Shown: positions 4,919 through 30,005, counted from the stretch's first letter. The stretch: DNA of 64,000 nucleotides from Dehalococcoidia bacterium (GCA_965248905.1 CBDFKS010000004.1:14759-78758); one strand, 5' to 3'. Made by a program: numbers and translations. The notes: generated by a model from the sequence alone, not told the origin.

Positions 4919-4943
4919 GTTACCTCCTCTGTCATGCCTTCGA

Positions 4944-5042: not shown

Positions 5043-5082
5043 TAGGATAAACCAACCAACATCTTGCAGGATAAGTCTGACA

Positions 5083-6504: not shown

Positions 6505-6529
6505 GTTACCTCCTATGCACGCCTTTACG

Positions 6530-6628
6530 GGCAGCCTCCTCTCCCCTTGTGGGAGAGGATTTAGGTGAGGGGTATCACCCCCATCCCACCCTTCCCCCAT
6601 CAATGGGGAAGGAGTTTTTCTCGATCTT
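6530..6628. repeat. REP-like nested-hairpin intergenic element (copy B)
   Basis: It is near-identical to copy A (gcagcctcctctccccttgtgggagaggatttaggtgaggggtatcacccccatcc..cttcccccatcaatggggaagg). The whole spacer is homologous to spacer 4919-5082, so it was duplicated together with the amidase gene. Confidence 0.8.
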
Positions 6629-6661
6629 GGGCAAACTTACATTTTCTGGAAAAACCTGACA

Positions 6662-8387: not shown

Positions 8388-8573
8388 ACCATCCTCCTCA
8401 TAACGTGCGACAGAATATCGGTGCTAACACCTATATGTTCGAGATTACCCTTATTCTCTTTAAAACTAAACCTCGTGTCAAGACGAGCACACCAAGCCTA
8501 GGCCGTACCTACACTCTCGATGATCATGAGCCTAACCGCGTCTGAAACTCTTCACAGAGTGAGTCCATGCGGC

Positions 8574-8602
8574 TTGACACTGCTAGCGCATACTTTTACC
8601 AT
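8574..8602 (+). promoter_or_regulatory. Candidate sigma70-type promoter (TTGACA-17 nt-TACCAT) for the regulator gene
   Basis: TTGACA at 8574-8579, a 17-nt spacer, then TACCAT at 8597-8602. This would give a near-leaderless mRNA for the ATG at 8612. The call rests on sequence pattern only. Confidence 0.3.
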
Positions 8603-8611
8603 ATTATTAGC

Positions 8612-9256
8612 ATGCGTTCGAAGAATGAACAACAGAGCTCTATGGACGACTCCGCATATCGAGAGCTACGTCTGTTATCGGAAATCCAGCATACGTCCGA
8701 GGCAACCCAGCGAGACCTCTCACGAAGTCTGGGCATTGCCCTCGGGCTTACCAACGTACTGTTACGCAACCTCGCTCAAAAGGGGTACATACGCGTCACA
8801 CATGCCCGCTGGAAGCGTTGGTTGTACGCTCTAACGCCATCGGGATTTTCACGCAAGATTCAGCTCACAGTTTCCTACGTGCACCGAGTCCTTGACCACT
8901 ACCAGAACGTGCGCCAGACGCTGCGCGACGAGCTGGAGCCCCTTCACCTAAACGAGGAGTCTCGAATTGCCATTTATGGGACCGGTGAGTTCGCAGAGCT
9001 CGTCTATCTGGGAGTGAAAGAGTACGGGATAGAAGAGATAGACATCTTCGGGTCCATTAATCCTGGCAACGGAAAGTTCCTGGGCATGAGCATAAAGGAG
9101 ATCGAATCCCTTTCGCCCGAGAACTACGACAGAGTAATCATCGCCTCTTTGCAAGAAGTCCAAAACAAACGTGAGGATCTGGCCCTTCGGGGAGTCTATC
9201 AAGAAAACATCGTGACTTTTCTGCCGGAAGCTACAGGGGGTAATAATGGCTTTTGA
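8612..9256 (+). CDS. Winged-helix (MarR/EPS-associated-like) transcriptional regulator with a C-terminal Rossmann-like domain
   Basis: The wHTH segment is SEATQRDLSRSLGIALGLTNVLLRNLAQKGYIRV. The C-terminal part contains IAIYGTGEFAELVYLG. The start is ambiguous: 8567 (ORF track), 8612 or 8642. Confidence 0.75.
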   Translation: MRSKNEQQSSMDDSAYRELRLLSEIQHTSEATQRDLSRSLGIALGLTNVLLRNLAQKGYIRVTHARWKRWLYALTPSGFSRKIQLTVSYVHRVLDHYQNVRQTLRDELEPLHLNEESRIAIYGTGEFAELVYLGVKEYGIEEIDIFGSINPGNGKFLGMSIKEIESLSPENYDRVIIASLQEVQNKREDLALRGVYQENIVTFLPEATGGNNGF

Positions 9257-9815
9257 ATGGTTCGTGGCAAAAGTAAAGCGGGATCAATCCAGCCTGGCGG
9301 AGCACCATCTGGAGTTCGCGGGACTGAAGGTTTATAACCCTCGTATCGCCGTGTTAAAGAGCAAGACAAGAAAGTGGGAAGACCTGTTCCCAGGCTACCT
9401 GTTTTGCCGGGTAGACACCAACAGCTCCAGACCCTGGCCCGGGCTACTATGGACCCCCGGTATACGCTACTTCCTACCGTCTCAAGGAACCCCCGCACCT
9501 ATTAATGAAGGGGCGGTGGAAGAGATCCAGCAGAGAGTGGAAAACTGGAACGAAGGCGGTTACCTGTGGGTATTCAAGAAGGGTGACCAATTACGGGTCA
9601 AGTCAGGCCCTCTAAAGGGCCTGGATGCCATATTCGAAAGATATTTGCCGGCCCGTGAGCGTTGCGAGGTGTTCTTGAATTGGCTCGCCAGGGGACTACT
9701 CACAGTAATGAACCCTGCTGACCTTGAGATAGCTACGAAACCAGGCTCACCCGGCCCGTGGGTCAAAGAGTATGAGCGGATCGAAAGTACCCGTCCACAG
9801 GTCGGCGCACGCTAG
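9246..9815 (+). CDS. NusG/RfaH-family specialised paralog (NGN + KOW)
   Basis: The NGN-like N-terminus is WFVAKVKRDQSSLAEHHLEFAGLKVYNPRI...LFPGYLFCRVD. The KOW motif is KKGDQLRVKSGPLKGLDAIFE. It sits at the head of a long co-directional glycan cluster. Confidence 0.85.
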   Translation: MAFEWFVAKVKRDQSSLAEHHLEFAGLKVYNPRIAVLKSKTRKWEDLFPGYLFCRVDTNSSRPWPGLLWTPGIRYFLPSQGTPAPINEGAVEEIQQRVENWNEGGYLWVFKKGDQLRVKSGPLKGLDAIFERYLPARERCEVFLNWLARGLLTVMNPADLEIATKPGSPGPWVKEYERIESTRPQVGAR

Positions 9816-10010
9816 GTGCTTTTAACAAGCACTTAATGGAAAGCTCCAAAAGAGCACGGGCCACACAGGCCAAATCGCTCCTCACATGAACCTACCGATA
9901 CGGAGGTTGGTGAGAACCCTAACAGGCGGCTCTCCGAAGAGAAAGTAGGGGAGGGCGTCAGGGGGGAACCCTACGCCAAAATACCGCACCGGCAAGTCTA
10001 ACACCCACAA

Positions 10011-10751
10011 ATGTCAGCTATCGTAGCCATACCTGCTCGGTTGAAATCAACCAGGTTCCCTCGCAAGGTCCTTGCAGACATCAATGGCAAACCCATGCTC
10101 TGGCACGTCTGCCAGGGCGTGGCCAAAGCGGAGCAGGTCTCGGCGGTGTGGGTGCTCACCGACAGCTCAGAGGTATATGAGGCGGCTTCGTCCTGGGGCA
10201 TGAAGGCCATGATGACCGCCGAGGAATGTCCATCGGGAACGGCTCGCATAGCCTCGGTGATAGATGTCATAGATGCCGACATAGTGGTCAACGTACAGGC
10301 AGATGAGCCTCTTATCTCGGGTAGTGTAGTTGATGGTGTGGTAGCCGCGCTGGAGGATTCCGATGCCGTGGTGGCCACGCCGGTATATTCCATCAACAAC
10401 ATCGCAGATGTTACGAGTCCCAATGTGGTGAAAGTGGCCCGGGCCTCCGATGGGCGAGCGCTCTACTTCTCCCGCAGTCCGATACCGTACGTAAGGGACT
10501 TCGAGGTAAAGGACTGGCTTGATCAGGCCCCATATTGGGGCCATGTCGGGGTATATGCTTACCGGCGGCAAGTCTTGATTGATTATCTCCACCTACCCGA
10601 GGGCCAGATGGAACGGGCCGAGAAATTGGAGCAGCTTCGCCTCTTGGAAGCAGGACGAGACATACTTACGGTGGAGATCGATTACAGGCCTCACGGAGTG
10701 GACGTGCCTTCGGACCTAGACCTGGTGAAGGGGCTGCTCCAGTCTTCCTGA
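10011..10751 (+). CDS. kdsB: 3-deoxy-manno-octulosonate cytidylyltransferase (CMP-Kdo synthetase)
   Basis: IVAIPARLKSTRFPRKVLADINGKPML, VVNVQADEPLI, ALYFSRSPIPY and EQLRLLEAG align along the whole length with E. coli KdsB. Confidence 0.93.
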   Translation: MSAIVAIPARLKSTRFPRKVLADINGKPMLWHVCQGVAKAEQVSAVWVLTDSSEVYEAASSWGMKAMMTAEECPSGTARIASVIDVIDADIVVNVQADEPLISGSVVDGVVAALEDSDAVVATPVYSINNIADVTSPNVVKVARASDGRALYFSRSPIPYVRDFEVKDWLDQAPYWGHVGVYAYRRQVLIDYLHLPEGQMERAEKLEQLRLLEAGRDILTVEIDYRPHGVDVPSDLDLVKGLLQSS

Positions 10752-10781
10752 ATACATTTGGTCTCCACCTGAAAGCAAAAC

Positions 10782-11663
10782 ATGACAGTCAACGGAGATA
10801 AATCATGGGATAACGCTCTAGAGCCATTTGGGCCGCTGGAGCGAGTGGTAGAGGTAGGCCCATTGCGTATCGGCGATGGCTCCCTGGCCCTTATCGCCGG
10901 CCCATGCGCCATCGAGTCCGAGAACCTTTGTCTCTCCGTAGCCGAGCATCTAGCCTCCATTTGTGCAGAGCTAGGCATACCGTACGTTTTCAAAGCCTCC
11001 TTCGACAAAGCAAATCGCACCTCTCTGAACTCCTTCCGAGGACACGGATTAAACAACGGTGTATCCGTTCTCGCCAAGGTAAAGGAGCAGATTGGAGTTC
11101 CGGTGCTGACAGACGTACATGAGACTGAACAGGTCCAGCCGCTAGCAGATGTGGTGGACATTCTGCAGATACCAGCCTTCCTCAGCCGCCAGACGGACTT
11201 GCTGGTGGAGTGTGGCAGATTGGGACGGGCTGTGAATATCAAAAAGGGCCAGTTTCTACCGCCTGAGGACATGCAATACTCCGCCGAGAAGGTGGCCAAC
11301 TCCGGAACGAAAAACATCCTTCTGACGGAGCGGGGAGCCTTATTCGGATATAGAGATTTGGTAGTGGACATGAGGGGCCTGGTGATCATGAGGTCACTGG
11401 GATACCCGGTAGTGTTCGACGCCACCCACAGCGTACAGCAAATGGGCGGTAGGGGAGGCTCGTCAGGTGGCAGGCCTCATTTCATTCCAGCCCAGATTAG
11501 AGCAGCAGCGGCAGTGGGAATCGATGCCCTATTTATCGAGACTCACCCAGACCCTGACAGCGCCTTGTCCGATGGAGCAACCATGGTACCCTTGGCAAAC
11601 ATCAGGGCTGTGTTAGAGATGGCTTTAGCCATACATTCTACCCACCAAAGGCGCCTGAGCTGA
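10782..11663 (+). CDS. kdsA: 3-deoxy-8-phosphooctulonate (Kdo8P) synthase
   Basis: GIPYVFKASFDKANRTS..SFRG, DVVDILQIPAFLSRQTDL, VVFDATHSVQ and LFIETHPDP are canonical KdsA blocks. Confidence 0.95.
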   Translation: MTVNGDKSWDNALEPFGPLERVVEVGPLRIGDGSLALIAGPCAIESENLCLSVAEHLASICAELGIPYVFKASFDKANRTSLNSFRGHGLNNGVSVLAKVKEQIGVPVLTDVHETEQVQPLADVVDILQIPAFLSRQTDLLVECGRLGRAVNIKKGQFLPPEDMQYSAEKVANSGTKNILLTERGALFGYRDLVVDMRGLVIMRSLGYPVVFDATHSVQQMGGRGGSSGGRPHFIPAQIRAAAAVGIDALFIETHPDPDSALSDGATMVPLANIRAVLEMALAIHSTHQRRLS

Positions 11664-12223
11664 CCACAGGACACGACCGGTCGGAGGCTCGAGAGCTTGC
11701 GAAAGGGTTACAAGTACTCCTTCTGGATGTCGATGGAGTCTTGACCGATGGAGGGATCATACTGTTCGGCACAGAAGGAGAAGCCAAACGTTTCGATGTG
11801 CAGGACGGGATGGGAATCAACCTAGCCAGGGCAGCCGGGCTCAAGGTGGGAATCATCACCTCTAGGACCTCCGATGTCGTACAGCGTCGCGCCGAAGAGT
11901 TGAGCATCGATGAGCTTTTTCAGGGTACCAAACGCAAGGTAGACGCCCTCGACGTCGTTCTCGATAAATATCACATCGAAGCATCCCAAGCAGGCTATAT
12001 AGGCGATGACCTTCAGGACATTCCGATTATGGAACGAGTGGGAATCCCCATCGCGGTCCAAAACGCCGCCGAGCCTGTAAAGGCATGCAGCATGTATGTG
12101 ACCATGGCAGGTGGCGGGCATGGCGCGGTGCGTGAAGCCATCGAATGGCTCCTGGAGCTCCGGGGCGACAGGGATAAGGCATACAAGTCTATTACACACC
12201 GCACCCAATGGACTAGCTCGTAG
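11660..12223 (+). CDS. kdsC: Kdo8P phosphatase (HAD-IIIA); 5' end uncertain, possible CTG start
   Basis: LLLDVDGVLTDG (nucleophile DxD), GIITSR, KRKVDAL and YIGDDLQDIPIM are present. The first canonical start (TTG at 11741) lies after the DVDG motif. The frame is open upstream, and CTG at 11660 overlaps the kdsA stop. Confidence 0.8.
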   Translation: MTTGHDRSEARELAKGLQVLLLDVDGVLTDGGIILFGTEGEAKRFDVQDGMGINLARAAGLKVGIITSRTSDVVQRRAEELSIDELFQGTKRKVDALDVVLDKYHIEASQAGYIGDDLQDIPIMERVGIPIAVQNAAEPVKACSMYVTMAGGGHGAVREAIEWLLELRGDRDKAYKSITHRTQWTSS

Positions 12224-12277: not shown

Positions 12278-13252
12278 ATGGCATTGGACATTAAAGACAA
12301 GACTTTCTTGATAACTGGAGGTACAGGCTCATTCGGCCAAAAATGTACCGAACTTCTTCTCAAGGAAGGCCCTCCCCGGCGACTGGTTATATTTAGCCGG
12401 GACGAGCTAAAGCAGTACGAGATGGAGAAGCGATTCAATCATCCATCCCTACGCTTCTTCATCGGCGACGTCAGGGATAAGGATAGGCTGTATCGGGCTA
12501 TGAACGGCGTGGATTACGTCATCCACGCTGCAGCTTTAAAACAGGTACCAGCCTGCGAGTACAACCCTTTTGAGGCGGTGAAGACCAACATCCTTGGCGC
12601 TGTAAATGTGATAGACGCCTCTATTGATAACCAGGTGGAAAAAGTAATTGCCATCAGCACCGACAAGGCCGTGAACCCGGTTAACCTGTATGGCGCAACC
12701 AAACTGTGCGCTGAAAAACTCTTCGTACAGGGCAACGCATACTCGGGGGGTCGAGCCCGGTTCTCTTGTGCCCGATATGGGAACGTGGTCGGCAGCCGAG
12801 GAAGTGTAATCCCCCTGTTTTTGCAGCAAAAATCTACTGGGAAGGTAACCGTTACGGACAAGCGTATGACTCGTTTCTGGATTACCTTGGAACAGGGCGT
12901 CAGGTTCGTTCTCAGCTGCCTGGAGACCATGGTTGGCGGCGAGATTTTCGTGCCCAAGATCCCGAGCATGAATATCATGGACCTGGTTTCGGCTATTGTG
13001 CCCGAATGTGAAGTAAACTTAACCGGCATACGGCCAGGAGAGAAGATCCACGAGCTACTTATGTCCCCCGACGAGGCACGCCAAGCGTTAGAACGCCCTG
13101 ATATGTACATCATTCAGCCTGCTCACTCATGGTGGCAGATACAGGACTCCGACGGAAGTACCCCTGTACCCGATGAGTTTATCTACAGCAGTGACAACAA
13201 CCCCCATTGGCTCACGGTTGAAGAGATTCAAGGAATGGCTGCGTCCATATGA
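12278..13252 (+). CDS. pseB: UDP-GlcNAc 4,6-dehydratase (inverting), PseB/FlaA1 type
   Basis: LITGGTGSFG, SRDELKQYEM, FFIGDVRD, HAAALKQVP..EYNP, STDKAVNPVNLYGATKL, RYGNVVGSRGSV, RMTRFWIT and GEIFVPKIPS are near-collinear with Helicobacter FlaA1. Confidence 0.9.
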   Translation: MALDIKDKTFLITGGTGSFGQKCTELLLKEGPPRRLVIFSRDELKQYEMEKRFNHPSLRFFIGDVRDKDRLYRAMNGVDYVIHAAALKQVPACEYNPFEAVKTNILGAVNVIDASIDNQVEKVIAISTDKAVNPVNLYGATKLCAEKLFVQGNAYSGGRARFSCARYGNVVGSRGSVIPLFLQQKSTGKVTVTDKRMTRFWITLEQGVRFVLSCLETMVGGEIFVPKIPSMNIMDLVSAIVPECEVNLTGIRPGEKIHELLMSPDEARQALERPDMYIIQPAHSWWQIQDSDGSTPVPDEFIYSSDNNPHWLTVEEIQGMAASI

Positions 13253-13334
13253 CATCCCATTCCAATGTCATTTCACAAACCGGATCATTGGTCTTAATAT
13301 CCCAATACCTCACCAGGTAACCGAAACTCTCAAA

Positions 13335-14180
13335 ATGGAAGAGATCAGCGTTAAAGAACTGTCCCGATACACGCCTTGGGTTGCGAGGTTGGCTGGCGTC
13401 GAGCCCTTCTCAAAGCCGACGAGGAACATCCAGAAAATAGATGCGGAATACGACAAGGATAAGTATGCCGAGCTCTTGAAGTACTTCAAACACAATCCCG
13501 ATGCCGAGCCGAGACAGGTCAAGATCTACGAGTCGGGCAACGGCGCCGATACCGAGGTGTGCATTTCCAAAGGCGGGAAACTGTTATTAACCTCCCATCT
13601 CGAAGCACAGTGCCTGGAAGAAGAGACCCTTGTCAACTGCATAGGAGATGTTATCGGCCAGGCTCCTGTTGTAATCGAGTTAGGGTGTGGATACGGTTAC
13701 AATCTCTTCACACTATCGAAGGCCTATCCCGGCCGTAACTGGATAGGCGGAGAGTACTCCCACAACGCGGTAATTCTTTCTGAGCTCCTATACTCCGATT
13801 GCTCCAACATCAAAATACAGCCATTTAACTGGTATGACGACACCTGGGACATTTTCGAGTCATTGGAGTCAGAAGCTGTCGTATTTACCAGGCATTCCAT
13901 CGAACAGTTGCCCCAGGCGAAATCTGCTCTGCAGACGATGGCCAAATATAAAGCACAGATCAAAAGAGTAGTTCATCTAGAACCCATATATGAACTGTTC
14001 ACACAGCAATCCTCCACACTGGCACAGATGCGGCAGGCTTATATTCTCATGAATGACTATAATACGGACCTCCTGGCCACCCTAACGAACATGAACGTAA
14101 AGATTGAATTGATTCAGGATGACCTGATCGGCGGCAACCCCCTGAATCCTACCTGCGTCGTTCAGTGGACTTTCAGCTGA
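13335..14180 (+). CDS. Class I SAM-dependent methyltransferase
   Basis: Motif I is VVIELGCGYGYNLFTL. The start is set to ATG 13335, after the pseB stop. The ORF-track start at 13173 overlaps pseB. Confidence 0.7.
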   Translation: MEEISVKELSRYTPWVARLAGVEPFSKPTRNIQKIDAEYDKDKYAELLKYFKHNPDAEPRQVKIYESGNGADTEVCISKGGKLLLTSHLEAQCLEEETLVNCIGDVIGQAPVVIELGCGYGYNLFTLSKAYPGRNWIGGEYSHNAVILSELLYSDCSNIKIQPFNWYDDTWDIFESLESEAVVFTRHSIEQLPQAKSALQTMAKYKAQIKRVVHLEPIYELFTQQSSTLAQMRQAYILMNDYNTDLLATLTNMNVKIELIQDDLIGGNPLNPTCVVQWTFS

Positions 14181-15202
14181 ACAATCTGGAGGCAACCAGC
14201 TTCCTGGTCGTAGGCTGTGGATCGATAGGACGTCGTCACCTCCGTAACCTGAAGTCCCTGGGTATATCCAAATTAATGGCCTTAGATGTACAACCTGAGC
14301 GGGCCGAAGCGGTGGCGGAAGAGCTTGGCATATCGACATTTACGAGTTTGTCTCAAGCACTAGAATCATCGCCCGATGTGGTATTCATTAACACTTCAAC
14401 CAGCTTCCATGTGCCTTTGGCCTTGGACGCCGCCAACAACGGCTGCCACATTTTTATCGAAAAGCCCCTTTCGCACAACCTTGATGGCGTGGATGATCTG
14501 ATCGCCCTGGTACAAGCTAAGGAGCTGGTAACGTTGGTGGGTTGCAACATGCGCTTCCATCCGGGGCTAGCCTTAATCAAAAGACTCTTGGACGATGGAG
14601 CAGTTGGGAGGGTACTGGCTGCCAGGGTGCAGGTAGGGCAGTGGCTTCCCGACTGGCACCCCTGGGAGGACTATCGCCACGGTTACAGCGCTCGAAAGGA
14701 GCTGGGTGGCGGTGTCATCCTAGACGCCATCCACGAGCTGGACTACATAGGCTGGTTGCTGGGAGGCCCAGTGCATCAAGTTGTATGCTTTGCCGGCAAC
14801 ACAAGCAGTTTAGAGATCGACACGGAAGACACCGCTGCCATCATGTTGCGCTTCGCCGACGGCGCCATAGGTGAAGTGCACATGGACTATGTGCAGAGGG
14901 CTTACAGCCGCTCCTGCCATATAATAGGCGATATGGGTACTATCCACTGGGACTACACTGATGGTCAGGTCAGGCTGTATTCGGCATCGGAAGAAAGCTG
15001 GCACACCTACTGTAATCCCACCGGATGGGAACCGAATCAGATGTACATCGACGAGATGTGTCATTTCTTACGCTGCCTTTCCGGAGAAGAGGAGCCGGTA
15101 TTGAACGTGACTGAGGGCAAACGAGTACTGGAGCTTGCCCTTGCGGCCAAGCAATCGGCGGATATCGGGGAGGTGGTTGCCATAGGGGAGAACCCTAAGT
15201 GA
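14165..15202 (+). CDS. Gfo/Idh/MocA-family NAD(P) oxidoreductase
   Basis: The N-terminal Rossmann segment is FLVVGCGSIGRRHLRNL. IEKPL and a C-terminal GFO_IDH_MocA_C-like region are also present. Confidence 0.85.
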   Translation: MDFQLNNLEATSFLVVGCGSIGRRHLRNLKSLGISKLMALDVQPERAEAVAEELGISTFTSLSQALESSPDVVFINTSTSFHVPLALDAANNGCHIFIEKPLSHNLDGVDDLIALVQAKELVTLVGCNMRFHPGLALIKRLLDDGAVGRVLAARVQVGQWLPDWHPWEDYRHGYSARKELGGGVILDAIHELDYIGWLLGGPVHQVVCFAGNTSSLEIDTEDTAAIMLRFADGAIGEVHMDYVQRAYSRSCHIIGDMGTIHWDYTDGQVRLYSASEESWHTYCNPTGWEPNQMYIDEMCHFLRCLSGEEEPVLNVTEGKRVLELALAAKQSADIGEVVAIGENPK

Positions 15203-17253
15203 GCCATAACATCGCGGCCATTATTCAGGCCCGGATGGGCTCTAGCAGATTGCCCGGAAAAACTCTGGCGCAAGTCGGCGACAAACCCCTTCTTCAGCAC
15301 CTTATTGATGCGATCAAAGCCTCAGGCTTTGTAAAAGAGATAATCATCTCCACGACGCACAAGGCCCAGGACCAGGTGTTGGTGGAGTTCGCTGAAAAGA
15401 TGGAGTTGAAACACTTTCAGGGAAGTGAAGAGGATGTTCTGGACAGGGTATATCAGTCAGCACGCCACTATCAGGTAGAACACGTGGTGCGAGTCACTCC
15501 TGATTGCCCATTTCTGGACCACAAAGTCATGGATAAGGTTGTCGAGGCCTACCTGTCCGGTCAGTACGATTACGTCAGCAATACCCTTCTTTATACCTAC
15601 CCCGATGGCCTGGACGTAGAAGTATTCTCCTTTACGGCTCTGGAGCGAGCTTGGAAGGAGGCACAGCTCCCATCGGAACGAGAGCACGTAACTCCTTACA
15701 TTCGTAACTCCGGCCACTTCAAGCTTTTCAACGTGGAAAACTCGGTGGACCTTTCACATTTCAAGTGGTCTGTCGATACCGAAGATGACCTGAATTTCGC
15801 CAAGTCAGTTTTCGAAAAGCTCAATGACAACGGGGCTGCGTCAAGTCTGGACGAGGTGCTCACGGTTCTCCAAGACCACCCGGAGCTCCTCTACATAAAT
15901 CAGCAAAGTGTCGTGAATGCCGGCTATTACAAGTCCCTTGTCGACGACCCTCCCGTACCCGCCCGCACAATTCTGACCGGCCGGTCGGAGGCCATGAAAG
16001 ACAAGGCGCAATCCTTAATCCCTTCTTCTACCCAGACCTTCAGCAAGGGCCCCACCCAGCTCGTACAAGGGGTAGCGCCCGTGTTCCTCGCCAGGGGCCA
16101 GGGAAGCCACGTCTGGGACGTGGATGACAACGAGTATATCGACTACCCTATGGCCTTGGGCCCCGTCATCCTTGGCCACAACTACGGCCCCGTGACTGAA
16201 GCGGTGATACGCCAGATGCAGGAAGGGGTGTCTTTCTCCCTACCCCATCCCTTAGAGATAGAGCTGGCAGAAATTTTGGTGGACACACTTCCCTGTGCGG
16301 AGATGGTGCGCTTCGGCAAAAACGGCTCCGACGCCACCTCGGGAGCGGTCCGCGCCGCTCGGGCGTACACGGGAAGAGATATTATCGCTTGCTGCGGGTA
16401 TCACGGCTGGCAGGACTGGTACGTAGGGACTACGACTCGGAACAAGGGTGTGCCGGAAGCGGTCCGACGCCTAACCGTTCCCTTCGAGTACAACAATATC
16501 GAGAGTCTGGAAGAGATTTTCGCCCAGCATTCCGGCCAGGTAGCAGCCGTGATTATGGAACCAATCGGGCTGGTGGAGCCCCGGGACGGGTTCCTGCAAA
16601 AGGTGAAGGAGCTAGCCCATCGCGAAGGTGCTCTGCTGGTCTTCGACGAGATAATCACAGGCTTTAGGCTGTCCTTAGGTGGAGCTCAGGAGTATCTCGG
16701 AGTGGAACCGGACATGGCGGCCTTCGGAAAGGCCATGGCTAACGGCTTTCCGCTGTCCGCGGTGGTGGGTCGCCGGGATGTCATGGAGATTTTCGATGAG
16801 GTCTTTTTCTCGTTCACCTTTGGGGGAGAGGCCATCTCTCTGGCAGCATCTATCGCAACGATCAAAGAAATGCAGAACAAAGGTGTCATATCCCACCTGT
16901 GGGCCCAGGGTCGAAAGCTAAAAGACGGCTACAACGTCATGGCCAAGGAGTTCGGGATCGAACAATACACGGAGTGCGTGGGGTTACCTCCCAGGACAGT
17001 TGCCTTGTTCCGGGATGAAAACGGCGCCGAATCGCTGGTGTTGAAGAGTCTGTTCCAGCAAGAGTGTCTCAGACGTGGTGTCCTATTCTCGGTGGGTCAC
17101 AACATCTGCTACAGCCATAGCGACGAGGATATCGATCATACTCTCCGGGTTTATCGAACGGCTTTGGATATTTTGGCACAGGCTATTCGAGAGGGCGATG
17201 TCCTTGAAAGGCTAGACGGCAAGCCGGTCGAGCCCGTGTTTCGCAAAGCGTAA
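15199..17253 (+). CDS. Fusion protein: SpsF-type nonulosonate/sugar cytidylyltransferase (N) + class-III PLP aminotransferase, GSA-aminomutase-like (C)
   Basis: The N-terminal part is IAAIIQARMGSSRLPGKTL...VRVTPDCPF...HVTPYI (CTP_transf_3/SpsF-like). The C-terminal part is GSHVWDVDDNEYIDY..., GSDATSGAVRAARAYTG, VFDEIITGFR and AAFGKAMANG (Lys). Confidence 0.88.
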   Translation: MSHNIAAIIQARMGSSRLPGKTLAQVGDKPLLQHLIDAIKASGFVKEIIISTTHKAQDQVLVEFAEKMELKHFQGSEEDVLDRVYQSARHYQVEHVVRVTPDCPFLDHKVMDKVVEAYLSGQYDYVSNTLLYTYPDGLDVEVFSFTALERAWKEAQLPSEREHVTPYIRNSGHFKLFNVENSVDLSHFKWSVDTEDDLNFAKSVFEKLNDNGAASSLDEVLTVLQDHPELLYINQQSVVNAGYYKSLVDDPPVPARTILTGRSEAMKDKAQSLIPSSTQTFSKGPTQLVQGVAPVFLARGQGSHVWDVDDNEYIDYPMALGPVILGHNYGPVTEAVIRQMQEGVSFSLPHPLEIELAEILVDTLPCAEMVRFGKNGSDATSGAVRAARAYTGRDIIACCGYHGWQDWYVGTTTRNKGVPEAVRRLTVPFEYNNIESLEEIFAQHSGQVAAVIMEPIGLVEPRDGFLQKVKELAHREGALLVFDEIITGFRLSLGGAQEYLGVEPDMAAFGKAMANGFPLSAVVGRRDVMEIFDEVFFSFTFGGEAISLAASIATIKEMQNKGVISHLWAQGRKLKDGYNVMAKEFGIEQYTECVGLPPRTVALFRDENGAESLVLKSLFQQECLRRGVLFSVGHNICYSHSDEDIDHTLRVYRTALDILAQAIREGDVLERLDGKPVEPVFRKA

Positions 17254-17272
17254 CCTTGAGGAGTTGGTGTTT

Positions 17273-18331
17273 ATGGCGACAAAGATAGAAATCGCAGATT
17301 GCTCAATCGGCGATGGGGAGCCGTGCTTCATCATTGCCGAGGCTGGCTCCAACCACAACGGTAACTTCGAGCAGGCGCTACGCCTTATAGATGTAGCGGT
17401 GGACGCCGGCGCGGACGCGGTAAAATTTCAGCTCTTTCGAGCGAGCAAGCTTTACCCCAAAACCGCAGGGCGAAGCGATTATCTGAAGCTCGACCGCTCC
17501 ATCTACGATATCATCGCCGACATGGAGATGCCCTACGAGTGGTTGCCAAAGCTGGCAAACTATTGTCAAGAAAAGAAGATCATCTTCTTGTCTTCGGTCT
17601 TTGACGAGGAGTCAGTTGACATACTGGACCCCTATGTACCGGCTTACAAAATCGCTTCCTATGAAATGACCCATCTCCCCCTTGTCCGCCACATTGCTAA
17701 GAAAGGCAAGCCGGTCATAATCTCCACAGGCACCGCCAACCTGGAAGAGGTGGATGAGACTGTCGAAGCCTTCTTCGCGACCGAGAACAAGGACTTGATG
17801 TTGATGCAGTGCACTGCGTCGTATCCCGCACCCGTAGAGTCTCTGAACCTTCGGGCAATAACAACCATGAAAGAGTCATTCAAGGTGCCGGTCGGTCTTT
17901 CCGACCACTCCCGGGACCCCTTCGTGGGGCCCATGGCGGCCGTGGCCATGGGAGCGAATCTGGTAGAGAAACACTACACATTAAGCAACCGTCTGCCTGG
18001 GCCGGATCATGCCTATGCTGTCGAGCCTCCAGAGCTTCGCGAGATGGTCCGGAAGATACGGAGCGTATCCGAAAGCTTGGGTACAGGTGAGAAGACTGTG
18101 CACTCGGTAGAGGACGAACTGAGGAGCTTCGCCAGGCGCAGCATCTTCGCCACCAGACACATCGCAGATGGGGAGGTTATCACTTCGGACAACGTCGCTG
18201 TTCTCAGGTGTGGAAAGCTGTCGGCTGGTCTGGAGCCTAGGTATTACGACGAGATATTGGGTAGTAGAGCCCAAAGAGATATCGAGGTAGATTCAGCGAT
18301 CCATGGTGGGGACTATCGGGTGAGGAGTTAG
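17273..18331 (+). CDS. Nonulosonic acid synthase (NeuB/PseI/LegI family) with a C-terminal SAF domain
   Basis: CFIIAEAGSNHNG, DAVKFQLF and SDHS are present. GAGGAG lies 9 nt before ATG 17273. Specificity (Pse, Leg or Neu) cannot be told from the sequence by eye. Confidence 0.9.
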   Translation: MATKIEIADCSIGDGEPCFIIAEAGSNHNGNFEQALRLIDVAVDAGADAVKFQLFRASKLYPKTAGRSDYLKLDRSIYDIIADMEMPYEWLPKLANYCQEKKIIFLSSVFDEESVDILDPYVPAYKIASYEMTHLPLVRHIAKKGKPVIISTGTANLEEVDETVEAFFATENKDLMLMQCTASYPAPVESLNLRAITTMKESFKVPVGLSDHSRDPFVGPMAAVAMGANLVEKHYTLSNRLPGPDHAYAVEPPELREMVRKIRSVSESLGTGEKTVHSVEDELRSFARRSIFATRHIADGEVITSDNVAVLRCGKLSAGLEPRYYDEILGSRAQRDIEVDSAIHGGDYRVRS

Positions 18332-18856
18332 ATGAAGATAGCCTTCATGGGCGGCAAGCAGGCGGGTTGCCTGGGCTTGCTTACGGTTTACGCTGCAGGT
18401 CATCAGCCCACTGCCCTGGTGGCCTACGATGATCTAGTCCAGCAGTTGGCGGATTCCCTGTCATTACCCTGCTATTCGTCTATACGCGACTCAGGTTTCC
18501 AAGATGCTTTGGCACACAATGACCTTTTACTCAGCGTCCATGGGAGGGAGATCGTTCCCAACAGGTTACTAGCGGTTCCACCATTGGGAGGAATTAACGT
18601 CCACCCCTGCCTATATCGGTACAAAGGTGCCGATCCGATCGGCAGGTTTCTTCAGGATGGAATTTCCAAGGCCAGCGTTGGGATCCATTGCATGACCGAC
18701 AAGGTTGATGAAGGTGAAGTGTTAGTGGAGGAGTTTGTTGAAGTCGAAGGCAAGGAGACCGTTGATGGGGTATATAACGCTTTGTACCCCTACTACACCA
18801 CCGCATTGATTAAAGCTCTGAAGATCTTACAAAGTAGACTTCCCGTTAATCCATGA
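18332..18856 (+). CDS. Stand-alone formyltransferase catalytic domain (Fmt N-terminal-domain-like)
   Basis: GGINVHPCL supplies the N-x-H and HCMTDKVDEGEVL supplies the Asp of the N/H/D triad. It is 174 aa with no Fmt C-terminal domain. Confidence 0.75.
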   Translation: MKIAFMGGKQAGCLGLLTVYAAGHQPTALVAYDDLVQQLADSLSLPCYSSIRDSGFQDALAHNDLLLSVHGREIVPNRLLAVPPLGGINVHPCLYRYKGADPIGRFLQDGISKASVGIHCMTDKVDEGEVLVEEFVEVEGKETVDGVYNALYPYYTTALIKALKILQSRLPVNP

Positions 18857-19881
18857 CAAGGGTGCTCTTTCGCGTGGATGCCGGGCTTCACATCGGACTC
18901 GGCCATCTTCAACGATGTCTGTCTCTGGCCACCGCATTAAAGACCTCCTCCGCGGAGAGTAGCTTCCTCGTGAATGAAGACCATAGCAGCGGTGAGCGGG
19001 TAGAGCGATGGGGGTACACGTCTCAGACCCTTCGTGAGGTCCCATCCTGGACTACTGAGGACGCGAAGGTGACAATAGAGACGGCATCGCGATTAGGCTG
19101 TGACAGAGTGGTGGTCGATTCCCACGAAGTGCCTGCAGATTACCTGGCTATGCTTACGGACTCTGAGCTATTTATAATAGCCAGAGATGACCTTGCTCAG
19201 TACACCTTTCCCTGCCAGATGGTATTTAACGGGAACGCGGATGCCCGCCTGTTGCCCTATCATTCCACTAACGGTGATGCGGTGTTTCTTCTGGGTCCAG
19301 AATACGCAGTGTTGGGCCCGCAGTATCAGGAAACAACAGCCCGTAAGGTAAACGCCTCCGTGCAGAACCTCCTGATAACCATGGGCGGTGAAGACCGCTA
19401 TAACCTGGTCCCCGATATCCTCAGCTTGCTGGACTGGATGCCAGGAGATTTTAGCGTCACTGCTGTGATAGGACCATACTCTAGGAACGTCGCAGAGGTG
19501 GAATCAGCTGCAGGAAAATCAAAGAGGACCGTCAAGTTGGTCTACAGTCCATACTCATTGCGAGACGTGATGGTGGAGGCCGACATGGCCATATCAGCCG
19601 CCGGACAGACTCTCTACGATTTGGCCTGTACGGGATGTCCGACCGTGGCGATCAAGGTTGCCGAAAACCAGGTCGGGCAAATGAGGGCTTTCGAAGATGC
19701 AGGATTCCTTCGAGTAGGTGGGAACGCCGAGAAGGACGATGTCCTCTCTCCTCTAAGAGAGATTATCTCATCCTTGCTCTCTGATCCTGAGGCGCGGGCT
19801 GCCATGAGCAAGGTCGGCCGGAGGTTGGTCGACGGTCAAGGAGCCAAGCGAGTCGCCAAGGAGATCTTGGCGCATGTTTAG
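18853..19881 (+). CDS. pseG: UDP-2,4-diacetamido-2,4,6-trideoxy-beta-L-altropyranose hydrolase-like (PseG/SpsG family)
   Basis: VLFRVDAGLHIGLGHLQRCLSLATAL is the typical PseG N-terminus. The C-terminal half is GT-B/GT28-like (ADMAISAAGQTLYDLACTGCP). Confidence 0.85.
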   Translation: MTRVLFRVDAGLHIGLGHLQRCLSLATALKTSSAESSFLVNEDHSSGERVERWGYTSQTLREVPSWTTEDAKVTIETASRLGCDRVVVDSHEVPADYLAMLTDSELFIIARDDLAQYTFPCQMVFNGNADARLLPYHSTNGDAVFLLGPEYAVLGPQYQETTARKVNASVQNLLITMGGEDRYNLVPDILSLLDWMPGDFSVTAVIGPYSRNVAEVESAAGKSKRTVKLVYSPYSLRDVMVEADMAISAAGQTLYDLACTGCPTVAIKVAENQVGQMRAFEDAGFLRVGGNAEKDDVLSPLREIISSLLSDPEARAAMSKVGRRLVDGQGAKRVAKEILAHV

Positions 19882-23650: not shown

Positions 23651-25420
23651 ATGAGTTACCAGGTAGTTTTTCATTTTTTGCGCCAATACAGGCTCCTTTA
23701 CGGCGGGATATTGGTCGTCACACTTATCGCCTCCGCCCTGGAGAGCTTGAGCCTAGCAGCATTCTTCCCGGTGTTCACCTCCGTGCTCGATGACTCGACA
23801 GAAGGAGTGGGAGGGATATTAGGCGTCATTACCAGCATAGCGGAGAGGTTTCCCTTCGACGATCCTATAATATCGGCATCCGTTCTGCTAGTCAGCTTGT
23901 TCGTAGCTAAAACGATCTTCACAATGGCGCGCGAAGGCTTGATTGCCTATAGTAGCGGCAAAGTGTTGTACGACACCAAAAACCGAATAATGGAAAAGTA
24001 TGCCGGCTCCGACTATCAATTTTTCTTGGACAACAAACAAGGGTCCATGATTTATAGCGGCTTACAGGCTCCTCATCACATGGCCCATGTACTGCTTCGG
24101 TTTTCCCAGATGGTTGGCGAGCTGTTCCGGACAATCGCCATTATTATCGTTTTGCTATTCGTGTCACCCTTCGCGACCATAGCTCTTGCGATCCTGGCCC
24201 TGGGCTACTCCGGAGTCATCCACGATCTTTCAAAGAGGATGTCATACCGTTTCGGCCAGAGAAGGGCCAGTGCCTTGGCAGAGCAGACCGTCATCGCCAA
24301 CGAGTTCTTCACCGGAATCCGGCAGATCATCGCTTATTGCTCCGGGGGATCGTGGTTAGAGAGGTTTCGCAAAGAAAACCGCGTCTCCAGTGAAATGTAC
24401 GCGAAAGACCTGGCGTGGGTCGCCATGCCCAAAAGCATAATGGAGCTTGCTGGTGTAGCGCTTATGATGGGCCTTGTCCTGCTGTTATGGTTCGTTACGG
24501 CGGATACCTTTGCAGATGCCCTGCCCAGGCTTGGGGTCTTCGCCGTGGCCTTGATCCAGCTACTTCCTTCGATTACCAACTTCGGGCGAATGAGGATGCA
24601 GATAATGGGCGCGATGCCAGATACTGAGCTGGTGTACAATACTCTCACCGGCCCGGCACCGACCCGTGTGGACGGCAATAAGAACGTGGACTCCTTCGAG
24701 AAGGCCATCGCATTCGAAGATGTATCATTCGCATACAAAGGTAGGGATACCTTATTGGATCGAGTCGACATGGTCTTTGAAAAGGGGAAGACTACTGCCT
24801 TGGTGGGCCCTTCGGGTGCAGGCAAGACCACCATCATCAACCTCATTCTAGGGCTGTTCGAGCCTACTAACGGACGCATAACACTGGACGGTGTGTCCCT
24901 CGGGGAATACAAGCTGGCAAGCTGGCTCGGGAAAATCGGCTTCGTGAGCCAGGAGCCCTTCATATACAACTCCACTGTGGCCGCCAACATTACCTTCACC
25001 AGAAACGGCCACTCTATGGAGTCGATCATAACTGCGGCTAGCATCGCCAACGCCCACGGACTCATCTCCGATCTTCCCCAGGGATACGATACGATCGTCG
25101 GGGATAGGGGCATGAAGCTCTCAGGCGGCCAACAGCAACGCATCGCCATAGCTAGGGCAGTGCTGGACCAGCCCGAACTACTGATATTCGACGAAGCTAC
25201 AAGCTCCCTGGACACCCTCTCGGAGAAGCTGGTGCAAGAGGCCATCGAGAACGTCTCCAAAGATCGCACAGTGATCATAATCGCCCATCGGCTCTCGACG
25301 ATAAGATACGCTGACAAAATAATCGTTATGGACAGCGGTCGAGTAATCGAGGAAGGAACCCATGACGAACTGTTAAGTCAGCAGGGCCATTATTCCCGTC
25401 TGGTGGCTTCATCCACGTAA
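23651..25420 (+). CDS. ABC exporter, fused TMD-NBD (MsbA/PglK-like)
   Basis: The N-terminal half has six hydrophobic spans. Walker A is GPSGAGKTT, the signature is LSGGQQQRIAIARA and Walker B is LLIFDEATS. Confidence 0.93.
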   Translation: MSYQVVFHFLRQYRLLYGGILVVTLIASALESLSLAAFFPVFTSVLDDSTEGVGGILGVITSIAERFPFDDPIISASVLLVSLFVAKTIFTMAREGLIAYSSGKVLYDTKNRIMEKYAGSDYQFFLDNKQGSMIYSGLQAPHHMAHVLLRFSQMVGELFRTIAIIIVLLFVSPFATIALAILALGYSGVIHDLSKRMSYRFGQRRASALAEQTVIANEFFTGIRQIIAYCSGGSWLERFRKENRVSSEMYAKDLAWVAMPKSIMELAGVALMMGLVLLLWFVTADTFADALPRLGVFAVALIQLLPSITNFGRMRMQIMGAMPDTELVYNTLTGPAPTRVDGNKNVDSFEKAIAFEDVSFAYKGRDTLLDRVDMVFEKGKTTALVGPSGAGKTTIINLILGLFEPTNGRITLDGVSLGEYKLASWLGKIGFVSQEPFIYNSTVAANITFTRNGHSMESIITAASIANAHGLISDLPQGYDTIVGDRGMKLSGGQQQRIAIARAVLDQPELLIFDEATSSLDTLSEKLVQEAIENVSKDRTVIIIAHRLSTIRYADKIIVMDSGRVIEEGTHDELLSQQGHYSRLVASST

Positions 25421-28838: not shown

Positions 28839-29999
28839 ATGGCTGATCTACAACTGAAGGTGAAGAAGAGCTATGACCAGGAGTCTTTGCTCAATGACAA
28901 GAGCATGAACTGGAAAGGGTTCGACAGGGATGCTCTGATGGCCAAGATCCGAGAGGAGCAGCAAGAGGGGCCAATCACCCGTCTCCGACATCCAGAGGTC
29001 CGATACGAGACCACGGACCATTGCAACGCCGAATGCATCATGTGTCCTAGAGATGTGCACAAGTTCGGCCGACCCCACGGCATCATGAACTTGGAGAAGT
29101 ATAAAAGGAGCATCGACGAGGTGGTGGAGCTCGGATGCAAGCAAGTCGTGCTCACAGGCTTCGGAGAGCCCCTGATAGACAAGAAGCTGGAACAGAAGGT
29201 CGCGTACGCTAGGGATAAGGGCCTTCGGACGTACATCATCAGCAACGCTTCTCTCCTTACACGAAAACGGGCCGAAGGCTTAATTCAGGCTGGACTGGAT
29301 GAGTTGAGACTCAGCTATTATGGCATGAGAAAAGAAAGCTACGAAGCGGTGATGGTAGGCCTTAATTTCGAAGTAACTATGTCAAATCTGCTGGGCTTTC
29401 TGGAGCTTCGTGATGAGCTAGGCTCCAAGAAGCCTCGGCTGGAGATCAACTGGCTGGTGCTGCCGGAGAACGAAGAGGATACGGACCACTTCAGGGAGTT
29501 CTGGGAGCCCAGGGCCGACGCCATCGAAATCTGGAAGCCTCATAACTTCGGCGATGGACGCGACTATCGCCAGCGCTATGAAGAAGTGGCTATGAAGACC
29601 ACCTGCGGCCGCCCCGAGAATGGTCCTCTACAGATCCAGTGGGATGGCGAGGTGATCCCTTGCTGCTACGACTATAACAATCAGATAGTGCTGGGAAACG
29701 CGTTTGAGCAGCCCGTGCTCGAAGTCCTAAATGGGGAGAAATACCGTCTGCTACGCTTCGCCCACCGGGACAAGAAGTTCAATCTCTTTCCATATTGTGA
29801 CCAATGTGACCAGCTCCTACCCCATGCCGACGCTCTGGTCTACACCAACCGCCACAACCTGCCCAAAGAGGTGGCGGTCAAGATGTCCAACACCGATCTG
29901 TACAATCTGGTGGACGACGAGTCATTCGATCCCAAGAACTTCAATGAGAAGTACGCAGATGGACTCGTTGAAGTCGAGTACAAGCAGGCAGGTCAATAG
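28839..29999 (+). CDS. Radical SAM enzyme with a SPASM/twitch-like C-terminal Cys cluster
   Basis: The CX3CX2C motif is in TTDHCNAECIMCPRD, followed by GFGEPL. C-terminal cysteines are TTCGRP, VIPCCYDYN and PYCDQCDQ. Confidence 0.88.
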   Translation: MADLQLKVKKSYDQESLLNDKSMNWKGFDRDALMAKIREEQQEGPITRLRHPEVRYETTDHCNAECIMCPRDVHKFGRPHGIMNLEKYKRSIDEVVELGCKQVVLTGFGEPLIDKKLEQKVAYARDKGLRTYIISNASLLTRKRAEGLIQAGLDELRLSYYGMRKESYEAVMVGLNFEVTMSNLLGFLELRDELGSKKPRLEINWLVLPENEEDTDHFREFWEPRADAIEIWKPHNFGDGRDYRQRYEEVAMKTTCGRPENGPLQIQWDGEVIPCCYDYNNQIVLGNAFEQPVLEVLNGEKYRLLRFAHRDKKFNLFPYCDQCDQLLPHADALVYTNRHNLPKEVAVKMSNTDLYNLVDDESFDPKNFNEKYADGLVEVEYKQAGQ

Positions 30000-30005
30000 T
30001 CCAGT

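Follow-up and report, generated by a model that had tools for sequence, protein, structure and literature searches.

Sinorhizobium K antigens (KPS) are strain-specific hexose-Kdo, poly-Kdo or pseudaminic acid derivative polymers, in which O-methylated sugars are frequent (PMC4881576). Among monoderms, Bacillus coahuilensis m2-6 and Hendrickia genomes carry a kdsABCD(+kpsC) genomic island (PMC4744853, PMC13249872), so that the preliminary description of the locus analysed here overstated the case in calling a Kdo-containing glycan unusual for a monoderm. Cultured SAR202 bacteria are monoderm, without peptidoglycan genes and with an S-layer-like coat (PMC10444878). The present locus lies in a 64,000-nt stretch of DNA, hereafter the window (GCA_965248905.1, CBDFKS010000004.1:14759-78758), and we found no publication joining SAR202 and Kdo. 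In the dark ocean, SAR202 ranks among the most abundant groups of bacteria and, to our knowledge, almost nothing is known of its surface. We propose that the window encodes a working CMP-Kdo pathway in a strain-variable island and that Kdo would serve as a building block of a non-LPS surface glycan in a monoderm SAR202 host, a reading to which we give a probability of about 0.78.

The host is a SAR202/Dehalococcoidia member of Chloroflexota. For RecA, encoded on another contig of the same genome, the nearest proteins bear the name 'Dehalococcoidia bacterium', in support of the host phylum that the preliminary description had only suspected. The island proteins match sequences named 'SAR202 cluster bacterium', 'Dehalococcoidia bacterium' and 'Chloroflexi bacterium', some of them from a SAR202 single-cell genome. 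The genome (G000) is a MAG of 7 contigs, 94.7% complete with ~5% estimated contamination. The lack of lpx and waaA genes, reported earlier for the window, extends to this whole genome, in which a lipid A or WaaA pathway located elsewhere was looked for and not found: there was no match to WaaA (GT30, PF04413), to the lipid A enzymes LpxA (PF13720), LpxC (PF03331), LpxB (PF02684) and LpxK (PF02606), or to the outer-membrane biogenesis proteins BamA/Omp85 (PF01103) and LptD (PF04453). A PBP transpeptidase also gave no match in the genome. The controls for the LPS and outer-membrane markers matched in E. coli and other diderms, those for WaaA in E. coli, Caulobacter and Bacteroides. In the host family, WaaA is absent from all 28 genomes, eight of them single-contig, as are KpsC/KpsS (PF05159 Capsule_synth; 0/28, G000 included) and PBP transpeptidase (0/28 save one split match with an internal stop), and LpxC is absent from the phylum sample (0/401 genomes). 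Judged by its genes, the host is an organism with one membrane, without LPS, outer-membrane machinery or peptidoglycan transpeptidase. Because LPS and outer-membrane genes are lacking, Kdo is not expected to act as an LPS core sugar here.

The pathway genes are real and lie where they had been placed, with kdsB, kdsA and kdsC adjacent and kpsF/kdsD ~20 kb from them; every one of the four scores above its NCBIfam cut-off (Table 1). All four reading frames are intact and no loss of catalytic residues or motifs was found in KdsB (IPARLKSTRFPRK at 7-19, VQADEP at 95-100, GVDVPSDL at 229-236), KdsA (GPCAIES with Cys42, KANRTS at 76-81, DATHSVQ at 213-219, ETHPDPD at 253-259, LSDG at 262-265), KpsF (GMGKSG at 47-52, HPSDGLHGD at 73-81, SGETEE at 97-102, HPGG at 184-187) or KdsC (see below). 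The best solved relative of KdsB is 1gq9 (183 bits, full-length alignment), which we take for the E. coli K-CKS/KpsU, the capsule-specific enzyme; a set of other KdsB structures, presumably including LPS-type enzymes, scores 125-154 bits. KdsA matches 6mdy, 3fs2 and 1fwn best, and KpsF aligns to the E. coli KdsD structure 2xhz. An exact-sequence look-up of the window KdsA returned no identical public record, and the length of the KdsA database record P0005 (266 aa) suggests that translation of kdsA may really begin 3' of ATG 10782. Relative to L104, an independent assembly from the same genus that served as the dN/dS reference, the pathway genes evolve under purifying selection (dN/dS 0.075-0.096; kdsB 0.096, kdsA 0.075, kdsC 0.085). 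The kept catalytic residues and the absent LPS markers support the earlier view of Kdo as a surface-glycan block rather than an LPS core sugar; Kdo most likely feeds a surface glycan, which may be a capsule, an EPS or a glycan of the S-layer.

Table 1. Features of the island, with positions counted from the first nucleotide of the window
Feature	Position	Strand	Basis
MarR-family EPS-associated regulator, island head	8567..9256	+	TIGR04176 64 bits, under cut-off 88
NusG paralogue (RfaH/LoaP/UpxY-like)	9246..9815	+	PF02357 NusG domain; RfaH, UpxY and LoaP models under cut-offs
kdsB, CMP-Kdo synthetase	10011..10751	+	NF003952 290 bits (cut-off 193); TIGR00466 192.8 bits (cut-off 155.2)
kdsA, Kdo-8-phosphate synthase, metal-dependent class	10782..11663	+	TIGR01362 375.7 bits (cut-off 314)
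kdsC, Kdo-8-phosphate phosphatase, 187 aa	11660..12223	+	TIGR01670 133.7 bits (cut-off 107)
Pseudaminic-acid-like nonulosonate module	12278..19881	+	TIGR03589 PseB 490 bits; PseG 178 bits
Fused TMD-NBD ABC exporter, HepA/MsbA/PglK type	23651..25420	+	HepA_fam 375, MsbA 357, PglK 260 bits
Radical SAM/SPASM enzyme	28839..29999	+	Radical SAM/SPASM model matches
SAM-dependent methyltransferase	31708..32484	+	Methyltransf_31, _25, _11 matches; stop overlaps kpsF start (ATGA)
kpsF/kdsD, arabinose-5-phosphate isomerase	32481..33449	+	TIGR00393 279.6 bits (cut-off 203.7); SIS and two CBS domains
605-aa GT-B 'HP-motif' protein, candidate CMP-Kdo transferase	33446..35263	+	Start overlaps kpsF stop

The start of kdsC, set at TTG 11741 in the preliminary description, has to be moved. 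This codon comes only after the motif of the HAD nucleophile, LLLDVDGV (11717-11740), and the stretch from the preceding in-frame stop to 11741 contains no canonical start (ATG, GTG or TTG). In five relatives (four family genomes and G481) kdsC begins with a GTG that overlaps the kdsA stop or lies a few bases from it; the triplet at the homologous position of the window is CTG (11660-11662), which overlaps the kdsA stop (cTGA), and the kdsC of L104 has the same CTG. Since the TTG follows the DVDG motif, the relatives have their GTG at the homologous site and the CTG is common to L104, we place kdsC at 11660-12223, with CTG 11660 rather than TTG 11741 as its predicted start. DVDGV falls inside the predicted protein only with translation from this CTG. 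The resulting KdsC aligns with the structures 2p9j, 4um5 and 2r8e from residue 8-15 onward, DVDGV (23-27) included, and the remaining HAD motifs ITSR, GTKRK and GDDLQD are encoded in frame. Its dN/dS was obtained with all 187 codons from the CTG counted; the 27 codons from the CTG to TTG 11741 differ from L104 by 8 synonymous and 3 amino-acid changes (hand count on the alignment) and hence evolve as coding sequence. Being common to an independent same-genus assembly, the CTG has persisted. With no canonical start before the nucleophile motif, kdsC as sequenced must either use the CTG or be inactive. Table 11 allows CTG as a weak start, such starts are tolerated where overlapping genes are translated by termination-reinitiation, and KdsC is dispensable in E. 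coli, where other phosphatases substitute.

The regulator at the island head passes the HTH_24 and MarR_2 Pfam thresholds, with MarR just under, and is 63-65% identical in G001, G014 and G003 and 93% in L104. It is followed by the NusG paralogue, which in the relatives immediately precedes kdsB and is probably an operon-specific antiterminator. After kdsC comes, in all relatives, the nonulosonate module, which encodes PseB, a methyltransferase-like protein, a GFO-type oxidoreductase, a cytidylyltransferase-aminotransferase fusion, a NeuB/PseI-like synthase (361 and 312 bits with the NeuB and PseI models, both under cut-off), a formyltransferase and a PseG-like hydrolase; by its predicted enzymes this module gives the island a second source of CMP-ulosonic acid. 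The ABC protein, whose HepA_fam, MsbA and PglK scores all stay under the equivalog cut-offs, is 57-64% identical in G012 and G014 and 38% in L106, and is probably a flippase/exporter of a lipid-linked glycan. It is the sole ABC exporter among the island proteins scanned, none of which matched the KpsM/T, KpsD or KpsE models. The most conserved island protein is the radical SAM/SPASM enzyme (79-84% in G012 and G014, 68-76% in L106 and L108), and its gene also precedes kpsF, with the gene order kept, in L106, L107 and L108. It opens a conserved sub-module that continues with two unknown proteins, the methyltransferase and kpsF and has the glycosyltransferase at its end; at least five methyltransferase-like genes occur in the island. 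No initiating transferase, polymerase or ligase was among the matches inside the window; genes for two Bac_transf phosphoglycosyltransferases and for Wzy_C-domain proteins are found at other places in the genome.

At the end of this sub-module two 4-nt ATGA overlaps, at 32481-32484 and 33446-33449, can be read directly in the sequence, the second being the previously noted junction of kpsF with the HP-motif protein gene. Against TIGR04326 the 605-aa protein scores 76.6 bits, under the cut-off of 250 and over its C-terminal part (324-567) only, and several homologues 49-56% identical to it are named TIGR04326 family by JGI; we treat it as a branch related to, but distinct from, TIGR04326. We know of no solved or characterised member of this related family. 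Searches of the PDB by single sequence and by profile gave nothing meaningful. With its AF2 model (pLDDT 92.4), Foldseek returned generic GT-B matches only, with WaaA at rank 34, no KpsC, WbbB or sialyltransferase in the top 50 and no preference for TagF, and the modelled GT-B fold would speak neither for nor against Kdo transfer. R474-P475-H476-P477 is near-invariant across 88 homologues. The gene follows kpsF without exception, lying directly 3' of it in G003, G012, G014, G481, L106/L107, L108 and L109; the pair is kept down to 39-45% identity, mostly with the 4-nt overlap, and a distant 24% homologue adjoins cytidylyltransferase genes. A test of strict co-occurrence with Kdo supply failed in one genome: G002 keeps the gene, downstream of a frameshifted kpsF remnant and without kdsA, so that the glycosyltransferase is not strictly tied to that supply. 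On its genomic context, the 605-aa protein is the best candidate for a putative Kdo transferase.

A bolder extension, which we consider doubtful, would make the 605-aa HP-motif GT-Bs a new CMP-Kdo transferase family that places Kdo, within a glycan also holding a pseudaminic-acid-like sugar, on the S-layer or the archaellins of a wall-less monoderm. Archaellin-domain matches number 16 in G000, and the family genomes with archaellins overlap with those holding the 605-aa family in 6/7. If true, a 'Gram-negative' sugar would sit on an archaeal-type motility filament. An archaeal-type N-glycosylation route was rejected, since a search for an STT3/AglB oligosaccharyltransferase found none.

The Kdo pathway is an accessory trait in the host family. 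KdsA occurs in 5/28 species genomes of this family and in 2 of ~285 genomes sampled from the order's other families, and was found in none of 400 other genomes of the phylum sample; kpsF is confined, within the family, to KdsA-positive genomes. The head MarR-NusG-kdsB-kdsA-kdsC-pseB is common to G001, G003, G012 and G014, and since four genomes have it and G014 is a 3.67-Mb single-contig genome, the chromosomal location of the island is genuine; the island contigs of G012 and G001 measure 0.6-2.5 Mb. L104 has the left flank (amidase paralogues) and the head as in the window, followed by different genes and an IS element. Partial decay is seen in two relatives, G001 having kept kdsBAC with no detectable kpsF, and G002 having the kdsA loss and kpsF remnant described above. 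In the KdsA tree 33 SAR202-type sequences form one clade (SH-aLRT 99, stem 0.32), for which no supported sister was found among 79 named diderm sequences, and the tree accordingly does not single out a donor. A KdsA search of genome contigs returned only sequences of diderm phyla that are 50-61% identical, the nearest named ones outside the clade, with neither family members nor a donor. We propose that the SAR202 lineage acquired the Kdo module horizontally, in a single event or in a few.

Could the kds genes nevertheless be ordinary LPS-core genes, from a diderm organism or a mis-binned contig whose lipid A genes and WaaA are missing from the assembly? A genome ~95% complete with ~5% contamination leaves some room for this, as do the diderm affinities of KdsA, but seven independent LPS/outer-membrane markers are all absent, WaaA is missing throughout the family and LpxC throughout the phylum sample, the island is found in the single-contig G014 and on the long contigs of G012 and G001, and its left flank is common to L104. 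We reject mis-binning and the LPS-core explanation on these grounds and regard their chance as close to negligible. It is somewhat less remote, if still very improbable, that the genes are a horizontally acquired remnant in decay, with the kdsC start lost and no CMP-Kdo made. The change from GTG to CTG with no other canonical start before DVDG would fit such a passenger, and so would the patchy occurrence of KdsA and the losses in G001 and G002; however, four intact frames with every catalytic motif, dN/dS values that include kdsC from the CTG, the coding-like evolution of the 27 codons and the persistence of the CTG in L104 all argue for maintenance, and a weak start would be tolerable at an overlapping junction in a gene that E. 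coli can spare.

An end product other than plain Kdo is an improbable alternative to which we give a little more weight. The pathway could lead to a modified octulosonate (for instance Kdo with O-methyl, 8-amino or other tailoring), or arabinose-5-P could be diverted by the sub-module from the radical SAM gene to kpsF. The position of kpsF within that sub-module, 20 kb from kdsBAC, and the number of methyltransferase-like genes favour this view, and rhizobial K antigens hold Kdo derivatives and O-methyl sugars (PMC4881576). Yet no KdnA/KdnB-type Kdo8N genes were found among the proteins scanned, KdsA and KdsB score as equivalogs of plain-Kdo enzymes, and tailoring after transfer would still yield a Kdo glycan.

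Our preferred reading, a working CMP-Kdo pathway that feeds a surface glycan, can be cast as the following route. KpsF/KdsD would convert ribulose-5-P into arabinose-5-P, which the metal-dependent KdsA would condense with PEP to Kdo-8-P; KdsC would then remove the phosphate and KdsB, which is capsule-type-like, would form CMP-Kdo. We infer that CMP-Kdo is consumed by the GT-B HP-motif protein encoded directly after kpsF. Together with the pseudaminic-acid-like nonulosonate, Kdo would give an acidic, probably O-methylated surface glycan; the pathway sits in a strain-variable surface-glycan island of ~40 kb. The glycan may be assembled on a lipid carrier, with priming by the phosphoglycosyltransferases encoded elsewhere in the genome, exported through the PglK/MsbA-type ABC protein and delivered to an S-layer-like coat, to other surface proteins or as free polymer. 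The module would now be an accessory, serotype-like trait.

Part of the SAR202 clade, about one species in five of the family, thus appears to hold an intact, selected Kdo pathway adjoining a pathway for a sialic-acid-like sugar. This makes a chemical prediction for cultured strains and marine glycan surveys, namely that Kdo and Pse-type acids occur in the coat. The island is likely a serotype-like locus that matters for recognition by phages and grazers, and its kpsF-coupled GT-B protein is a candidate Kdo transferase from a family with no relation to WaaA or KpsC/KpsS. As Chloroflexota joins the increasing number of monoderm lineages that carry Kdo pathways, kds genes become weaker markers of a diderm envelope.

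With the LPS inner-core pathway the locus has in common the same four enzyme families and the same catalytic motifs, but its genome has no WaaA, lipid A enzymes, Lpt or Bam machinery. The E. coli group 2 capsule resembles the locus in that a surface polymer other than LPS receives its Kdo through a dedicated KpsF-type isomerase and a CMP-Kdo synthetase, and the window KdsB is nearest to the presumed capsule enzyme 1gq9. The SAR202 host, in contrast, is monoderm, with no outer membrane and hence no KpsD/E-type export, its family has no KpsS/KpsC, its exporter is of the fused MsbA/PglK/HepA type rather than KpsM/T, and its island has its own kdsA and kdsC. The Bacillus/Hendrickia island likewise comprises a complete, horizontally acquired Kdo pathway in a host without LPS or outer membrane, within a variable island containing glycosyltransferases. 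It belongs to a different phylum, however, and in Bacillus it has kpsC, IS flanks and strongly deviant G+C, whereas the SAR202 island lacks kpsC, occupies a conserved chromosomal site behind the NusG paralogue and is linked to a nonulosonate pathway, in a host that also lacks peptidoglycan genes. The rhizobia that make Sinorhizobium K antigens are diderm, have Kdo also in their LPS and export the polymer by rkp-1 and KpsMT-type systems, unlike the SAR202 host. In composition, these antigens offer a parallel: they use Kdo and Pse-type nonulosonates as alternative or joint blocks of a strain-variable acidic polysaccharide, and the window, as far as genes alone can tell, brings a Kdo module together with a Pse-like one and several methyltransferases.

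Gene content and motif conservation show four apparently intact enzymes, together sufficient for CMP-Kdo synthesis, in a genome without an LPS acceptor. As the preliminary description had stated, kdsB, kdsA and kdsC are adjacent, lying head to tail in the ORF table and all scoring above the NCBIfam curated cut-offs, and kpsF belongs to the same run of + strand genes, which extends from about 8.6 to 49.3 kb. Its predicted coupling to the following 605-aa ORF fits the sequence, the kpsF stop overlapping the start of that ORF (ctATGAgc), and the kpsF start itself overlaps the stop of the upstream methyltransferase gene (caccATGAgc). Alignments to solved structures, made to check the catalytic residues, find every expected motif kept in KdsA (GPCAIES with Cys42, KANRTS, DATHSVQ, ETHPDPD and LSDG), KdsB (IPARLKSTRFPRK, VQADEP and GVDVPSDL) and KdsD (GMGKSG, HPSDGLHGD, SGETEE and HPGG). 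By its motifs we take KdsA to belong, like the Aquifex aeolicus enzyme, to the metal-dependent class. Among solved structures KdsB is closest to 1gq9 (183 bits, other KdsB entries reaching 125-154 bits), presumably the capsule-specific E. coli K-CKS/KpsU, and we assume that the other entries include LPS-type enzymes.

Coordinates of the Kdo supply genes and neighbouring features in the window
Feature	Position	Strand	Remarks
Amidase-signature paralogues, three in tandem	3509-8065	-	left flank of island; also in L104
Untranslated leader, 195 nt	9816-10010		between NusG paralogue and kdsB
kdsB	10011-10751	+	NF003952 290 bits (cut-off 193); TIGR00466 192.8 bits (cut-off 155)
kdsA	10782-11663	+	TIGR01362 375.7 bits (cut-off 314)
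kdsC	11741-12223 (ORF table); 11660-12223 (re-read)	+	TIGR01670 133.7 bits (cut-off 107)
kpsF/kdsD	32481-33449	+	TIGR00393 KpsF/GutQ 279.6 bits (cut-off 203.7); one SIS and two CBS domains
605-aa GT-B protein	33446-35263	+	directly after kpsF

One assignment had to be corrected. The TTG at 11741, taken as the kdsC start, falls just 3' of the HAD nucleophile motif. Upstream of it the frame runs ...ELAKGLQVLLLDVDGV-L(TTG)TDG, with no ATG, GTG or TTG between the previous stop and this codon. The GTG start of kdsC overlaps the kdsA stop (GTGA) in the family genomes G001, G003 and G012, the junction is TAGTG in G014, and in G481, from another family of the order, the GTG lies a few bases past the kdsA stop. 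Five relatives of other genera thus use GTG where this genus has CTG (gCTGAcc, 11660-11662). The same CTG stands in L104, a contig of the same genus with 89-93% protein identity, and because this is an independent ENA assembly the codon is not an assembly error. L104 also has an in-frame TTG seven codons after the CTG, a possible start, where the window reads CGG. Against L104, kdsC has a dN/dS of 0.085 over the 187 codons counted from CTG; the 27 codons before TTG 11741 carry, by our count on the alignment, eight synonymous and three amino-acid changes, and the region therefore evolves as coding sequence. We infer that kdsC begins at a weak CTG, probably initiated by coupling to kdsA termination.

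One alternative is that these are ordinary LPS-core genes, with lipid A and WaaA pathways encoded elsewhere in the genome. The preliminary description reported no lpx, waaA or lipid A gene in the window, and this extends to the whole metagenome-assembled genome (3.71 Mb, seven contigs, 94.7% complete, 5.1% contamination; the window is C4:14759-78758), where WaaA, LpxC, LpxB, LpxK, the LpxA C-terminal domain, LptD and Omp85/BamA all lack a match, with controls positive in known diderms. The lipid A/WaaA pathway that would make these ordinary LPS-core genes is therefore not found in the assembly. These absences are HMM results on an assembly that is 95% complete, and closed relatives back them. 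WaaA and KpsC/KpsS are each found in 0 of 28 genomes of the family, and LpxC in 0 of 401 sampled evenly across the phylum. The host assignment, for which a marker outside the window had been proposed, is supported by RecA on contig C3, nearest to NCBI 'Dehalococcoidia bacterium' (Chloroflexota) proteins at about 80% identity. Relatives of KdsA and the 605-aa protein (45-77% identity), some from Tara samples, are labelled 'SAR202 cluster bacterium AD-802-F09_MRT_200m', 'Dehalococcoidia bacterium' or 'Chloroflexi bacterium'. The family has no PBP transpeptidase apart from one split match with an internal TGA (G439:C11:204603-205524), which may be a pseudogene or contamination. The LPS and transpeptidase absences agree with SAR202 strains in culture, monoderm cells without peptidoglycan genes that bear an S-layer-like coat (PMC10444878).

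With WaaA and KpsC/KpsS missing, the 605-aa protein that follows kpsF is the best candidate for CMP-Kdo use. It follows kpsF, mostly with a 4-nt overlap, in the window, G003, G012, G014, G481 and contigs L106/L107, L108 and L109 (6.5 kb, from a Nitrospiraceae bin), at 34-65% identity; at least eight long contigs, judged from matching longest-contig sizes, appear to have both it and a SAR202-type KdsA. A 24% homologue sits among cytidylyltransferase genes. The stretch R474-P475-H476-P477 is nearly invariant among 88 homologues, in which E340, G363 and E382 do not vary at all. The AlphaFold model is a confident two-Rossmann GT-B fold (pLDDT 92.4), to which Foldseek matches generic GT-B enzymes only (CalG, NeuC, MurG, PimB'), with WaaA at rank 34; sequence and profile searches against the PDB found nothing. 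Gene order thus points to a CMP-Kdo transferase, a tentative assignment to which we give slightly less than even odds. The pairing does not always hold: the family genome G002 has a decayed copy of the kpsF-GT sub-module (C4:278810-282500, L114-L116). A kpsF remnant broken by a frameshift comes first, then a HAD hydrolase and a KdsB-like cytidylyltransferase of 37% identity, and after these intact orthologues of the GT (60%), the RmlD-like gene and the GT2; kdsA is absent from the G002 genome.

The head of the island, MarR-NusG paralogue-kdsB-kdsA-kdsC-pseB, is kept in G001, G014 and G003 at 63-83% identity; only its kdsB-kdsA-kdsC-pseB part is matched in G012, where an extra 191-aa SIS_2-domain gene (GmhA-like or single-SIS isomerase; C7, locus L102 3472-4047) lies between kdsC and pseB. 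The leader before kdsB is where a putative ops/JUMPStart-like recruitment element would be sought. The single 3.67-Mb contig of G014 places the island on the chromosome in this family, and the amidase flank common to the window and L104 anchors it at a conserved site. Beyond that flank and the head, L104 differs in gene content: an IS element (rve/HTH_Tnp_1, 17589-18805) lies inside its island, and pseB is followed by genes for a separate cytidylyltransferase, an acetyltransferase, a 620-aa protein, a carrier protein and a MaoC/SDR fusion, a serotype-like pattern; the locus is variable within one genus. In the window the island further holds a pseudaminic-acid-like module with its own cytidylyltransferase fusion, UDP-ManNAcA-type genes, several methyltransferases, GT2 and GT4 transferases, a TagF-like protein, a radical SAM/SPASM enzyme and a fused HepA/MsbA/PglK-type ABC exporter. 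The string radical SAM/SPASM-two unknown proteins-methyltransferase-kpsF-605-aa GT (28839-32484 onward) recurs in the distant contigs L106, L107 and L108; the radical SAM protein, the most conserved of the island (68-84% identity), may tailor Kdo or the arabinose-5-P branch. The window has no initiating transferase or ligase; elsewhere the genome encodes two Bac_transf phosphoglycosyltransferases and Wzy_C-domain proteins, and STT3/AglB is absent from it.

KdsA exceeds the cut-off in five of the 28 species genomes of the family (G000, the window's own, and G001, G003, G012 and G014; five genera), in two of about 285 sampled from the order's other families (G481, G570) and in none of 400 others across the phylum; all but one of the five positive family genomes also have kpsF, which no negative one has. 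At least 120 clusters (90% identity) in public metagenomes share at least 70% identity with the window KdsA. Maximum-likelihood analysis groups 33 SAR202-type KdsA sequences in a single clade (SH-aLRT 99, stem 0.32), with no supported sister among 79 named diderm-phyla sequences, just 50-61% identical. This suggests one main acquisition from a diderm donor, then spread or loss within SAR202; the compact kdsB-kpsF-kdsA-kdsC operon of G570, only 54-59% identical, may be a separate event.

In the mechanism we propose, HP-motif GT-B enzymes would add CMP-Kdo and CMP-nonulosonate to a lipid-linked glycan, which methyltransferases would tailor and the PglK/MsbA-like ABC protein would export, for display on a proteinaceous coat or release as polymer, with the NusG paralogue securing long-range transcription of the island. 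As a lead only, the glycan may decorate archaella. Sixteen archaellin-domain (PF01917) matches of this genome lie outside the window (C6:110-116 kb, C7:894-897 kb, C7:747-750 kb, C5:161 kb); six of the seven archaellin-positive family genomes (G000, G003, G013, G002, G010, G012, G005), related and so not independent, also have a 605-aa GT family member.

Our literature search found no paper joining 'SAR202' and 'Kdo'. The closest known systems include the supply genes of E. coli group 2 capsules (KpsF/KpsU), the rhizobial K antigens, polymers based on Kdo or Pse that differ from strain to strain and are often O-methylated (PMC4881576), and the kdsABCD+kpsC island of monoderm Bacillus coahuilensis and Hendrickia genomes (PMC4744853, PMC13249872). 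Kdo pathways in monoderms are a recurrent theme; new here are the phylum and the peptidoglycan-less host, the tight pairing of the Kdo pathway with a Pse-like one, and the kpsF-coupled GT family.
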